64,000 bases of DNA from a virus (Duplodnaviria > Caudoviricetes): IMG/VR virus record IMGVR_UViG_3300028591_000071. One strand, 5' to 3'. Positions 10,077-26,845 of this stretch are shown here, in pieces (position 1 is the first letter of the stretch; each line of letters starts with the position of its first letter). The translations under genes were made by a program, and so were the position numbers. The notes under the pieces were generated by a model. The model was not told the origin of the DNA and did not search any database. It saw nothing but the letters and a program-made list of their open reading frames with translations.

Positions 10077-10193
10077 TCGGAACAAAAGGAATCGAACCTC
10101 TTCTAGCGGCTCCCATAGCAAAAACGAAAATTGCTGTAGATAACCTTGCCAGATTACACGATAAACGCTGTGCTACCATTACACTATATTCCG
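10077..10193 (-). ncRNA. tRNA-Pro(TGG)-derived RNA with hairpin+ACAGCAA insert in the anticodon stem
   Basis: C1:G72/A73 acceptor, D and T arms; removing the insert restores GCGGC-TATGGGA-GCCGC. Confidence 0.7.
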
Positions 10194-14751: not shown

Positions 14752-14913
14752 TGGGCGATAATGGAGTCGAACCATTGACCCCCTGCTTGTGTTGGTAGAT
14801 TACGCTTCGAACGTAAACAACATAAGCGCGTTTTCTCCCGTTCTACCAAAAACCCGTCACAGTGGGTTAATCTGTAGAAGGCAGGTGCTCTGAACCAACT
14901 GAGCTAATCGCCC
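14752..14913 (-). tRNA. tRNA-Val(TAC) with 87-nt insert (14791-14877)
   Basis: Exons join as CCTGC-CTT^ACAA-GCAGG. Confidence 0.85.
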
Positions 14914-15090: not shown

Positions 15091-15267
15091 CGGGCACAGT
15101 AGGACTCGAACCTACAACCTACGGATTAGGCATACTATTCAGAATCGAACTGAAATCACTACTGCCACGGCTTCGGGTCCTCGCCATTAGACGATAGTAT
15201 GCTTAAGTTCATTTTCGGCGAACTATTCCTTATACAGTCCGTTGCTCTACCATTGAGCTATGTGCCC
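15091..15267 (-). tRNA. tRNA-Asn(GTT) with 105-nt insert (15129-15233)
   Basis: Exons join as ACGGA-CTGT^TAA-TCCGT, G73. Confidence 0.85.
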
Positions 15268-16335: not shown

Positions 16336-16990
16336 TCCCACATATTCTCCGCCCGTGGGGAGGCTCCTTGCACCCCTATTTATTAGTCGCCCGCCATAAT
16401 TGCGACACCATACAGTACTGTTGATAGGTAAAAGTCTGTGGTTCAGTGCCCTTATTACCGCCTTACCCCCTGAATGATTGGAACATTTCTGTCGTGCTGC
16501 CTATACGGGGCTTACGCCCACCTGGGGTACATCATCGAAACGAAATCTTGCGCAAGTTACCATCTAGCGGAAGATGCGGAATATCAGCCCGCCCCAACTA
16601 ATTGGTAATTTCATCTCGTGAACGAACCGGGGAGGATAACTTTCATTTGCAACCCGGCTCTTAGCCCGCCAATCTTTTTACCACAGTAAGAAAAGTGCCA
16701 TACTACATCGCTGCGACTGAGGAACCTCGGCTTCACGAGGATTGCATGACCATTGGGATTTCTCCTTTACATGGTTTTACCACTCTGTTGGCAGGGCGCT
16801 TCAATTGTGGTTTATGAATTATATCCACAATCTCAAGGTTCATGAGCAGCCTGACATTAATTATTCGCGCGGTCAGTTTCATATCTTGGCAGACTTGCGA
16901 TTAAGCAACATTTAAGTATCTCTCCTCGGTCAACCACCAAGTTTCCTCATTACTACTTGGCAAGGTCCTACCCTAAAATAGGACGCGGCA
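16336..16990 (-). ncRNA. candidate large ornate ncRNA (~650 nt)
   Basis: GC-rich gap without a credible ORF between tRNA genes, many local hairpins. Confidence 0.5.
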
Positions 16991-17800: not shown

Positions 17801-17918
17801 CAACCATGACAGGACTCGAACCTGCGACACGCGGATTATCAGTCAATAAACATTGCTGTAAATTTCCATAACCTGTAAACATAAAAGTACGCCGCTCTAC
17901 CCTCTGAGCTACATGGTC
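17801..17918 (-). ncRNA. tRNA(GAT)-derived RNA with 45-nt hairpin+ACAGCAA insert in the anticodon stem
   Basis: Removing 17845-17889 restores GCGGA-CTGATAA-TCCGC. Confidence 0.7.
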
Positions 17919-18879: not shown

Positions 18880-18963
18880 CGGAAGCCTGAGGTGTCGAGC
18901 CCCATGCCATGTGGCACGCATCGCTTTCGAGGCGAGCCAAGAAGCCGTTCTTGTTAGACTTCC
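18880..18963 (-). tRNA. tRNA-Ser(CGA)
   Basis: Loop CTCGAAA, variable arm, atypical D/T loops. Confidence 0.8.
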
Positions 18964-19117
18964 GTTTTATCCGCATTCCATATCACATTTCGTGCAGATT
19001 ATAATAGTTTCACAATATGTCAAAGACCTTCAAGTGTTTATGCAAATATACATAGTTTGTTTTGCAAAAACAAATGTTTTTAATCACTTTTTGTCTATTT
19101 ATCTTAAGTAGACATAT

Positions 19118-19202
19118 CTCGGGGTCGGGATTAAACAAGGAATTTCGCTACCTTATTAACGGACCGTGAGTAGAGGGATGGGAGTGATGAACCTGTCCCT
19201 CG
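19118..19202 (-). ncRNA. small RNA containing 23S rRNA 1926-1946 sequence
   Basis: TAAGGTAGCGAAATTCCTTGT at 19155-19135, flanked by CGGTCC and CCGACC. Confidence 0.7.
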
Positions 19203-19209
19203 TTTTTTG

Positions 19210-19284
19210 TTGCGTAGGTGAGATTTGAACTCACGACCCCGAGGATATGAATCTCGTGCTCTACAACCACTGAGCTACTACGCA
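19210..19284 (-). tRNA. tRNA(CAT) Met/Ile2
   Basis: Cloverleaf, loop TTCATAT. Confidence 0.88.
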
Positions 19285-20199: not shown

Positions 20200-20358
20200 T
20201 GGGAGCGGGAGGACTCGAACCTCCGAAGGCCGAAGCCGAGGGATTGTGGGTATAGGAATGTACGATACTCCGAAACTTCCTTTATTTATACCCAATCAAT
20301 TTGTACAGTTTTATTCTGTTATTACAGTCCCTTGCAATTGCCACTATGCGACGCTCCC
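20200..20358 (-). tRNA. tRNA-Tyr(GTA) with 77-nt insert (20246-20322)
   Basis: Exons join as AGGGA-CTGTA^AA-TCCCT, long variable arm. Confidence 0.88.
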
Positions 20359-22079: not shown

Positions 22080-22511
22080 ATAACCTATTATGTGCTTTTA
22101 CGCTTAATGCTCCAACGGCGGTTTCACAGACATTCCAGTGAATCAATTAACCTAGCGTTGATTCCGCGCCCATCATCCTCATGAATGGTACGCCATGGCT
22201 ATCGAGTAGCCACTTAAGGTTAAGTGCTCGTTCCTCCCGTACTGGGGCACCTTATCTGTCTTACCTGTCTCCGACTCCCATAATATCCTTCACGAAACCG
22301 AGGAACGGCGGGCATTTCAGCCCGTCCTTTAAAACGGCCCATCCGGTATTGGTGCTTATGACTCCGTGCGGCGTCGCATGGCGTGTAGGTTCACTACCAT
22401 ACTGTGTTCTTGAGACCACCACTATTCGCCGCGTGTACCTGTCGGCATAGTCTCTTCCGCTCGCAACTCCTTAGCTGATGGCTGCTTCCAAGCCTACAGT
22501 TAATAGGTTAT
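22080..22511 (-). ncRNA. 23S rRNA factor-binding-centre mimic RNA (GAC + sarcin-ricin loop)
   Basis: 11-bp terminal stem; TGTAGGCTTGGAAGCAGCCATC, AAGCGTAAAAGC, CAGTACGGGAGGAAC. Confidence 0.8.
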
Positions 22512-23422: not shown

Positions 23423-23597
23423 TGACCCCTGCGGGGCTCGAACCCGCGACCCCGACATTAGAACCGTTAACGGGACTTGCACCCGTGCCTCACCTGTTTC
23501 CCAAGTGTTTCCCACTGCTCGAATTCTAACGGTTTGGTTCGTTACGGTGAACCACTCCTTATAAAGTGTCGTGCTCTACCAACTGAGCTAAGAGGTC
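23423..23597 (-). tRNA. tRNA-Lys(TTT) with 102-nt insert (23461-23562)
   Basis: Exons join as CGACA-CTTT^TAA-TGTCG. Confidence 0.85.
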
Positions 23598-24445: not shown

Positions 24446-24719
24446 TTTACCGACACCATATAATGGTTTAATTTAATTACCTATAGCCAAATGGTGTCTA
24501 TTTGTTGGCTCTCACATTTAAGAGTCAACTATTAATGCTTTTGTTTACCGTGTTTCATCGTCTTCATATATCTTAATAAATTTGTTTTCGCACTACTGCT
24601 TCTGTTAAAGATGAAGTCAGCAAGATTCTTTGCAAATATACGAACTTATTTTCAAATTCCAAAATATCTACTTTTCTTTAGATATTCGTCAATTATCTAA
24701 TATATGCTCGATAATTTTG

Positions 24720-25969: not shown

Positions 25970-26473
25970 TGCCAGATTCGGGATTCGAACCCGAGAAGCC
26001 CCACATGTGGGGGTCGTACTCCGTAGGGTTCCGTGGTTACCACGGGCCTTCGCGTCGCTCCGACATAATAAAGACAAAAGAACAGGACTCCTGACTACCT
26101 GCAAATCCTAATCCAAAGCGCGTTATTCAGCCACACTCACAACCGTTAGCTACTCGATTGCTTAACGAGTGGGAGGAATGCTTACCTCCAAGCGGATACA
26201 GCCATCATGAGCCTACTACGATTTGTCCGCTTCTTACGACCCTCACGGTTGGCCAACCGTGGGTGTTTCAGCCTTACGCTTCTTCAGACCTCTAACCGCC
26301 CCCGCCGCTTTTCAGCGGACGGATGTGTACCTTACGGGCAGGCTACCCGTTGTTCGGTCATCTTCGTCTTTATTGTAGTTACAAAGAACTCCCGTGATGT
26401 TTAGCGTCCACCACGACGACGGAATCCTAAACCACTTGGTGATATTTAAAGTCGCTACCAAGACGACTTGTCT
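25970..26473 (-). ncRNA. candidate ~500-nt structured RNA ending in a tRNA-like T arm
   Basis: Long-range stem AATAAAGACGAAGA/TCTTTTGTCTTTATT; 3' TCGGG-TTCGAAT-CCCGA. Confidence 0.55.
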
Positions 26474-26537
26474 AATGGTAAATTTGCCTTCTTTTCTATA
26501 AATATATATTAACTTTTACTAAAAATCAAATATTTTT

Positions 26538-26753: not shown

Positions 26754-26772
26754 AATATATTCTAAAAATTTG

Positions 26773-26845
26773 TGGTACATACAGGACTTGAACCCGTGCT
26801 TATCGGTTTTAGAGACCGTCGTGCAAACCGCTACACCAATGTACC
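26773..26845 (-). tRNA. amber suppressor tRNA(CTA)
   Basis: GGTACAT/ATGTACC, CGGT-CTCTAAA-ACCG. Confidence 0.9.

Follow-up and report, generated by a model that had tools for sequence, protein, structure and literature searches.

The locus and its setting

Which strand of a short piece of phage DNA, identical in sequence to part of the bacterial 23S rRNA, is the functional one, and what would its RNA do? The piece lies in the window, meaning here the whole stretch of 64,000 nucleotides analyzed from virus record IMGVR_UViG_3300028591_000071, which is part of a large phage genome, described as that of a jumbo phage. A tRNA island of 19 kb on the minus strand contains 35 genes recognized by ARAGORN, including a tmRNA, and the same region carries homing endonucleases, an NAD-dependent ligase and a sigma factor. 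Promoters of the form TTTG-N19-21-TAnnTTTG precede many genes of the window, and the sequencing run that matches the window best is a sheep gut sample; together these two observations point to a host among the Bacteroidota. No rRNA gene is present in the window.

Within the island, positions 19135-19155 (minus strand) are identical over 21 nt to E. coli 23S 1926-1946, just as the first-pass annotation had described. The chance expectation for 21-nt matches between the window and the 16S, 23S and 5S rRNAs is 1.3e-4, the second-longest exact rRNA match within the window is 13 nt, and the element is present there in one copy. Read in the rRNA sense, the core includes the m5U1939 site; around it lie seven nucleotides identical to 1919-1925, an insertion of 5 nt and letters that match 1957-1962. 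The CTC/GAG and GGTC/GACC pairings that had been proposed to close the structure again are those of the predicted minimum fold of the sense strand; the pairing is indeed new, as claimed, but the letters of GGTC and GACC are those of rRNA 1921-1924 and 1959-1962.

The sequence had been regarded as a small RNA in a tRNA spacer; it is accompanied on the plus strand by CTATTTAT and a hairpin followed by U6, which bracket the element. The features are as follows.

19095-19102, plus strand: CTATTTAT, putative phage late-promoter motif, assigned from its position and strand bias before ORFs
19109-19208, plus strand: putative antisense RNA against 23S rRNA, about 100 nt long (promoter-terminator unit)
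19118-19126, plus strand: 5' arm of the basal stem, pairing with 19162-19170
19123-19133, plus strand: block complementary to 23S about 1952-1962 (3' strand of H71) in the cofold, with G-U at U1956
19135-19155, plus strand: invariant core, exact complement of 23S 1926-1946, conserved across copies
19161-19167, plus strand: complement of 23S 1919-1925, the 3' strand of H69; shares positions with the basal stem's 3' arm (19162-19170)
19173-19208, plus strand: intrinsic-terminator-like hairpin (10 bp, two G-U pairs, 9-nt loop), then six U
19209-19284, minus strand: tRNA-Met(CAT), context, convergent with the predicted antisense RNA

The 5' end of the predicted RNA (19109) is an estimate, set a few bases past the promoter motif. 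On the plus strand the basal stem includes one invariant G-U pair and one that is either U-G or C-G, and two of its pairs are changed on both sides among the copies (C-G to A-U and G-C to A-U). The core forms a 4-bp stem with a 10-nt loop complementary to 23S 1931-1940. The side blocks are less uniform: that complementary to H71 reaches about 1954-1965 in L005 and L066, and that complementary to H69 has variants at 1921 (G>A) and 1923 (T>C), in which pairing is kept via G-U. The terminal hairpin, with changes on both sides in seven of its ten pairs, has in the window an energy of -16.1 kcal/mol on the plus strand versus -11.7 on the minus strand; it was missed by the routine terminator scan because of its 9-nt loop. 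Rfam covariance models gave no match at 19090-19208 down to E=5 and none at the gathering score in L002-L008, and ten further loci gave only a sub-threshold match at the level of the terminator. A small ORF on the antisense strand was considered and rejected, as the ORF of L002 is not conserved in L004 and the window has no ATG after the motif.

Conservation and covariation of the element

Viral, metagenome and genome collections were scanned for copies of the core whose flanks are not rRNA. Of 51 matches, about half were rRNA variants or chimeric contigs and were excluded, chance-core matches were also removed, and three groups were left after this filtering. Group A comprises eleven distinct copies, including that of the window, from jumbo phages of the gut type, where they lie within tRNA arrays; two of the contigs measure 222 and 345 kb. 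In every copy the predicted RNA runs opposite to the tRNAs. Group B occurs in Firmicute-type prophage head modules, including those of Helcococcus and Anaerococcus genomes. Group C consists of about twenty environmental phage lineages, mostly large, and retains extra blocks matching 23S 1899-1910, 1913-1924, 1963-1981 or 1989-1997. Besides the gut tRNA-array clade, a 16-nt core is common to about 25 phage lineages.

The search for the 21-mer within phage tRNA arrays, which the first-pass annotation had proposed, thus returned ten further copies in gut jumbo phages; its reservation that absence from related phages would speak against a function falls away, as relatives do carry the element. Across the eleven group A copies the 20-nt core (1926-1945) is invariant and the linkers differ both in sequence and in length. 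Covariation is seen in the basal stem and in the terminal hairpin, with 9 of 24 pairs changed on both sides and a score of 0.342 versus at most 0.155 in slid controls. The ten further copies, the invariance of a core held in a covarying stem and the recurrence of the core in about 25 other lineages show that this is no one-off capture. These comparisons support the reading of the element as a putative small RNA gene, selected, derived from rRNA and conserved in related phages.

The same data bear on a reading at the level of DNA, as a homing-endonuclease target or an attachment site, or as a neutral capture beside an ordinary terminator. The copied stretch overlaps the I-CeuI target (23S 1911-1937) and a known intron hot spot, and homing endonuclease genes are nearby. 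However, the I-CeuI target is disrupted, as had been noted from the sequence, by the 5-nt insertion after 1925, and its first part (1911-1918) is also absent. Moreover, the flanks covary as RNA helices, and the core is unchanged in phages of 33-42% GC despite differing flanks, so that a DNA-level site or a neutral capture is very improbable.

When groups B and C are scored with the model built from group A, they reach 19-37 bits, in many cases along its full length; true rRNA reaches 20-23 bits through the core alone. These scores express a shared architecture and are not proof of common descent. A pattern scan that included the H71 block also admitted rRNA and many chance matches in coding DNA; about ten of its 39 distinct matches look like members, and its terminator bias is weak (8 antisense versus 5 sense). 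A scan for a swapped-order form of the antisense element gave one distinct sequence, near the chance expectation. The plasmid search returned true rRNA only.

Versions in cultured phages

No close copy of the window element was found in the cultured phages searched, where MT838240 gave a partial match only. A BLAST search of 23S 1899-1999 against INPHARED yielded weak matches that are intergenic or in 3' regions. Arya, Bas97 and its relatives and the Hafnia phage TS33 have an exact match of 16-17 nt to 1942/1943-1958, followed on the antisense strand by a hairpin and U-run. These phages (Arya, Bas97 and relatives, TS33), as well as L169, L002 and L004, also match the 3' end of 16S rRNA on the antisense strand over 10-15 nt, and such matches rank in the top 1-3% of windows within their loci. 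In so large a collection a 17-nt match has no significance by itself, and it becomes credible in combination with the 16S 3'-end match and the terminator. Longer matches of 24-30 nt, without a clear terminator, occur in Sextaecvirus-type phages and in Vibrio PWH3a-P1. To judge from their sequences, the cultured-phage versions are probably analogues of the window element and are not shown homologues.

A single strand complements 23S H70-H71 as well as the 3' end of 16S at L106:2415-2560 (Bas97, PQ850606.1 about 24520-24660), L105, L108, L169, L002 and L004. The element of Bas97, a BASEL phage, lies 3' of the integrase, beneath an annotated hypothetical gene on the other strand. Several small INPHARED records deposited as phages, among them PQ800148.1, KM209255.1 and OR844775.1, span the whole 23S stretch of a host and have the appearance of contaminating host rRNA.

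Which strand is functional

The clearest difference between the strands concerns terminators, defined as a hairpin of -9 kcal/mol or less plus a U-run 3' of the core. One is present on the antisense strand in 21 of 29 lineages and on the sense strand in one of 29, compared with none at ten chance-core control loci, a bias whose significance is overstated because the assignment of loci to members or controls was made by eye and partly from the flanks in view, and because the lineages are related. Sixteen of the 21 terminator hairpins are more stable on the antisense strand. The consensus fold likewise differs, with -20.75 kcal/mol for the antisense versus -12.28 for the sense strand.

Further information comes from CTATTTAT, which on the plus strand precedes the core by 34-35 nt in nine copies of group A and by 41-42 nt in the two that have longer linkers. 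Within 70 nt upstream, the motif precedes 7 of the 44 ORFs of the window on the coding strand and none in reverse; the corresponding values are 15 of 68 versus 5 in the L005 phage and 18 of 112 versus 3 in the L006 phage. It is found ahead of tail sheath (in both phages), terminase and homing endonuclease genes. This coding-strand bias, together with the position before such genes, suggests that CTATTTAT behaves as a late promoter. Nowhere else in the 19-kb tRNA island does the plus strand combine the promoter motif with a terminator. Outside group A, L021 and L027 have TTGACA, 17 nt and a -10-like hexamer upstream on the antisense strand, and in three Firmicute-type prophage loci the late-gene strand is the antisense strand; in L040 the sense strand, too, bears a terminator and a motif resembling a promoter. 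As a separate observation, the motif used before late genes in these jumbo phages (L185-L195) closely resembles the late promoter of T4 when that is reverse-complemented.

The substitutions in well-anchored blocks were also compared. Those of group A at 1921 (G>A), 1923 (T>C) and 1956 (T>C) are tolerated by G-U pairing if the RNA is antisense, and all five in the matched block of Sextaecvirus and Vibrio PWH3a-P1 are T>C or G>A, which would likewise give G-U pairs. The family-wide count, 24 wobble-compatible versus 15 mirror changes, is noisy and not significant, and A1969G in three aquatic copies fits the sense fold better. The upper stem is more stable in the sense (-4.7 to -9.3 kcal/mol) than in the antisense strand (-1.2 to -2.0) in each of the seven copies computed, the former using G-U pairs in non-rRNA linker letters; the core is unpaired to about 0.6 in the antisense and 0.46 in the sense strand. 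In these models the weak antisense upper stem may be a deliberately weak top, or may betray a real sense fold.

Taken together, the terminator bias, the spacing of CTATTTAT, the consensus fold and the substitutions tolerated through G-U favor the antisense strand, which on sequence grounds is quite likely the functional one. No minus-strand terminator was found after tRNA-Met, so that the sense strand is probably co-transcribed as read-through of the tRNA precursor. Contigs of two RNA runs from different studies cover the element (X1 identical over 19025-19192, X2 a variant); they were not counted as expression, because the depth is flat, the material may be DNA and contigs are strandless.

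Pairing with the 23S rRNA and a possible mechanism

The stretch 1919-1970 is present at three mismatches or fewer in 143 of 301 Bacteroidota genomes, and among the matches listed nearly all are identical to E. coli, so that the host target is very likely the E. coli sequence. When cofolded with 23S 1906-1975, the predicted RNA pairs almost continuously with 1919-1946 plus about 1952-1962, looping out the 5' strand of H71. Net binding is -30.6 kcal/mol for the window antisense RNA and -22.9 to -37.4 for its relatives (L005 being the strongest at -37.4), compared with -3 to -8 for the sense strands against the same target; these values are for naked RNA and follow trivially from the complementarity.

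Several reports describe when this part of the ribosome is accessible. MazF, which cleaves single-stranded RNA, does so in the form of MazF-mt6 at helix/loop 70 in the 50S subunit and not in the 70S ribosome, and the helix/loop 70 region is required for subunit association.PMC5408214 Helices 67-71 are highly unstable in 45S precursors,PMC3737534 and H69 and H71 are late-folding helices.PMC9638911 A PNA directed against H69 blocks translation (Kulik 2017, cited in PMC12828698).

From the layout described above we infer a promoter function for CTATTTAT, its late timing, the transcription and strand of the RNA, its pairing in the cell and an effect on subunit joining. The stand-alone gene would be transcribed late from the plus strand, against the tRNA array, into an RNA of about 100 nt ending at the intrinsic terminator. 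Its covarying basal stem would present a weakly paired top bearing the invariant 21 nt, of which the 10-nt loop would pair first with the exposed helix/loop 70 of a free or immature 50S subunit. Pairing could then spread into H69-H71 while opening the RNA's own stem, that is, by strand invasion. The bound 50S would be unable to join the 30S, and the nuclease-sensitive segment 1939-1943 would be covered; on these two counts the RNA would be a one-to-one anti-association, or parking, factor for large subunits and not a decoy. A late phage RNA antisense to H69-H71 that acts on free or immature 50S is the account toward which the evidence tilts, if only slightly. Its weakest step is that the motive of a phage that supplies tRNAs and a tmRNA for parking 50S subunits late in infection is not obvious.

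The first-pass annotation had instead seen a sense-strand decoy for rRNA-cleaving toxins, and it was right that MazF-mt6 cuts in helix/loop 70, where cleavage by MazF-mt6 and MazF-mt3 has been reported.PMC5408214 In such a scheme the minus strand, co-transcribed with the tRNAs and processed, would titrate a protein that binds H70, either an rRNA-cutting toxin or a factor of ribosome assembly or modification, for example RlmD. The sense orientation is that of the tRNAs in all group A copies, the sense upper stem extends to 8-10 pairs when G-U is allowed, the aquatic versions place a new hairpin at the position of H71 and keep later segments of domain IV in order, and the window holds a second sense-oriented rRNA-like element (22081-22510). 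However, the promoter motif, the terminator and the consensus fold are all on the complementary strand, and a sense mimic leaves the first two, as well as the 21:1 terminator bias, unexplained. The sense fold pairs 1927-1930 with 1941-1944 and so buries the CCU of UUCCU, whereas MazF needs a single strand; UUCCU is absent from the Arya, Bas97, TS33 and Sextaecvirus versions; a five-base MazF site would need no exact copy of 21 nt; and in L072 the substitution at 1923 (T>C) disrupts the stem of the sense strand and spares that of the antisense strand. A sense mimic is therefore unlikely, and with the signals on the opposite strand, the CCU paired and UUCCU lost in the distant versions, the element does not provide the independent support for rRNA mimicry in the island that had been claimed for it.

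Two other proposals accept the antisense RNA, and thereby share the evidence for that strand, and give it a different task. It could be a guide, whose duplex is an RNase III-type substrate for the destruction of spare 50S as a source of nucleotides, or a splint that holds toxin-cut ends (near 1939-1941) for resealing by an RNA ligase. The 21-bp duplex does span the MazF sites, and the tRNA island, with its tmRNA, supplies parts for translation rescue; yet no conserved enzyme gene adjoins the element in the tRNA arrays, prophage head modules and integrase/lysin 3' regions inspected, no scaffold is conserved beyond the complementary blocks, and a splint of such stability would need to be removed afterward, all of which makes either role improbable. 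Alternatively, pairing of the loop alone with 1931-1944 on mature free 50S might shield it reversibly against defense-triggered RNases until displaced at subunit joining. This segment is the very one cut in free 50S, the 3' end of 16S, where MazF-mt3 has its other site, is complemented at six loci as well, and the late timing suggested by the motif would be suitable. Nevertheless, bases within 23S 1926-1945 are partly paired inside H70 in the mature subunit, and the invariance extends to them, while the side blocks enter H69 and H71; this suggests full invasion over reversible kissing, and a reversible shield is quite unlikely.

Relation to known systems

The antisense RNAs of plasmids, CopA/CopT of R1 and RNA I/RNA II of ColE1, are about 100 nt long, have their own promoter and terminator, and carry a loop on a bulged stem. 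At the sequence level the element resembles CopA and RNA I in its predicted promoter and intrinsic terminator on the complementary strand, in the complementary bases displayed in a 10-nt loop on a 4-bp stem, with a core about 0.6 unpaired, and in the UUCG of the loop, which fits a YUNR turn. The plasmid RNAs are cis-encoded and fully complementary, whereas here the computed pairing is discontinuous and the target is host rRNA. The element, as modeled, would thus work like a plasmid-type cis antisense RNA but is not one. Known phage RNA decoys, namely pseudo-ToxI of phiTE, RNA anti-CRISPRs and replacement tRNAs, are sense copies that bind a protein; they too are small phage RNAs made from host RNA sequence, and the difference is that the strand evidence for the element favors the complement. 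Archaeal and eukaryotic box C/D and H/ACA guides pair with pre-rRNA in blocks of 10-21 nt, including domain IV. The element has no conserved C/D or H/ACA boxes, its invariant columns being the rRNA complement and stem pairs only, and no gene for a partner protein of such guides was seen near the element loci.

A natural bacterial RNA complementary to an rRNA transcript exists in H. pylori, where a cis-antisense RNA to the 23S-5S precursor forms a duplex that is a substrate of RNase III.PMC6582327 That RNA is host-made, lies opposite the rRNA gene and covers the first 172 nt of the precursor; the element is phage-encoded and would act in trans through separate blocks against the universally conserved core of mature 23S. 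The synthetic H69 PNA base-pairs with the same intersubunit region (Kulik 2017, cited in PMC12828698), is artificial, and has no natural counterpart described there. MazF-mt3 and MazF-mt6 of M. tuberculosis attack the same exposed 23S loop in free 50S, and MazF-mt3 also cuts the anti-Shine-Dalgarno region near the 3' end of 16S, which is the second site complemented by some relatives of the element;PMC5408214 these are protein nucleases that cut, whereas the predicted phage RNA would cover the site.

We found no report, within the open-access literature searched, of a natural RNA acting in trans that pairs with the functional core of bacterial rRNA. We lean toward the view that phages of many unrelated groups have repeatedly derived trans antisense RNAs from parts of domain IV of 23S, in some cases also from the 3' end of 16S, and that these bind free or immature subunits at exposed intersubunit sites. 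If so, this would be an undescribed class of RNA regulators of the ribosome, through which phages control ribosome supply or protect subunits with an RNA of 100 nt whose target is a sequence that the host can hardly mutate. It would also show which parts of rRNA can be reached by base-pairing inside living cells, a matter of interest for 50S assembly as well as for antisense antibacterials. The cultured-phage versions, such as that of the BASEL phage Bas97 with E. coli K-12, make the question testable in laboratory strains.

Other features of the window and of related loci

The second rRNA-like element, at 22081-22510 (minus strand), contains in the sense orientation a 13-nt exact match to 23S 1068-1080 within a 10-bp closing stem; unlike for the element at 19118-19202, its surroundings yielded no plus-strand terminator. 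Longer 23S matches, up to 1918-1961 and often with a one-base deletion, occur in the phage or prophage loci L050, L117, L159, L131, L120/L153/L164 and L170, in which the terminator scan gave none on either strand. In L101, a Solirubrobacterales MAG, at least eight units recur about every 365 nt, with inverted 23S 1919-1952 pairs around a short spacer; they are either a repeat element or an assembly artifact.

Several tRNA genes of the minus strand contain inserts of about 45-105 nt (10077-10193, 14752-14913, 15091-15267, 17801-17918, 20200-20358 and 23423-23597). One contig of run X4 skips the 77 nt of 20244-20322, which is the insert of the tRNA-like gene 20200-20358; it was recovered at a low likeness threshold and may represent the tRNA of another organism. 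At 18880-18963 (minus strand), behind a Bacteroidota-type promoter at 19043-19050, a sequence with the anticodon CGA and a long D stem folds like a tRNA, and relatives carry tRNA-Ser or tRNA-Arg in its place. A tRNA with a CTA anticodon is found at 26772-26845 (minus strand), and L005:2229-2555 has two tRNAs with a TTA anticodon; long ORFs are still read with table 11. At 26162-26505 (minus strand), a TATTTAT motif stands before about 400 nt of structured sequence poor in ORFs, which gives a weak match to manA (E 0.054), possibly another late noncoding RNA. A second CTATTTAT, directed against the tRNA array, lies at 16377-16383 (plus strand) where a hairpin ends, and about 700 nt of ORF-poor structured sequence lie downstream of it.
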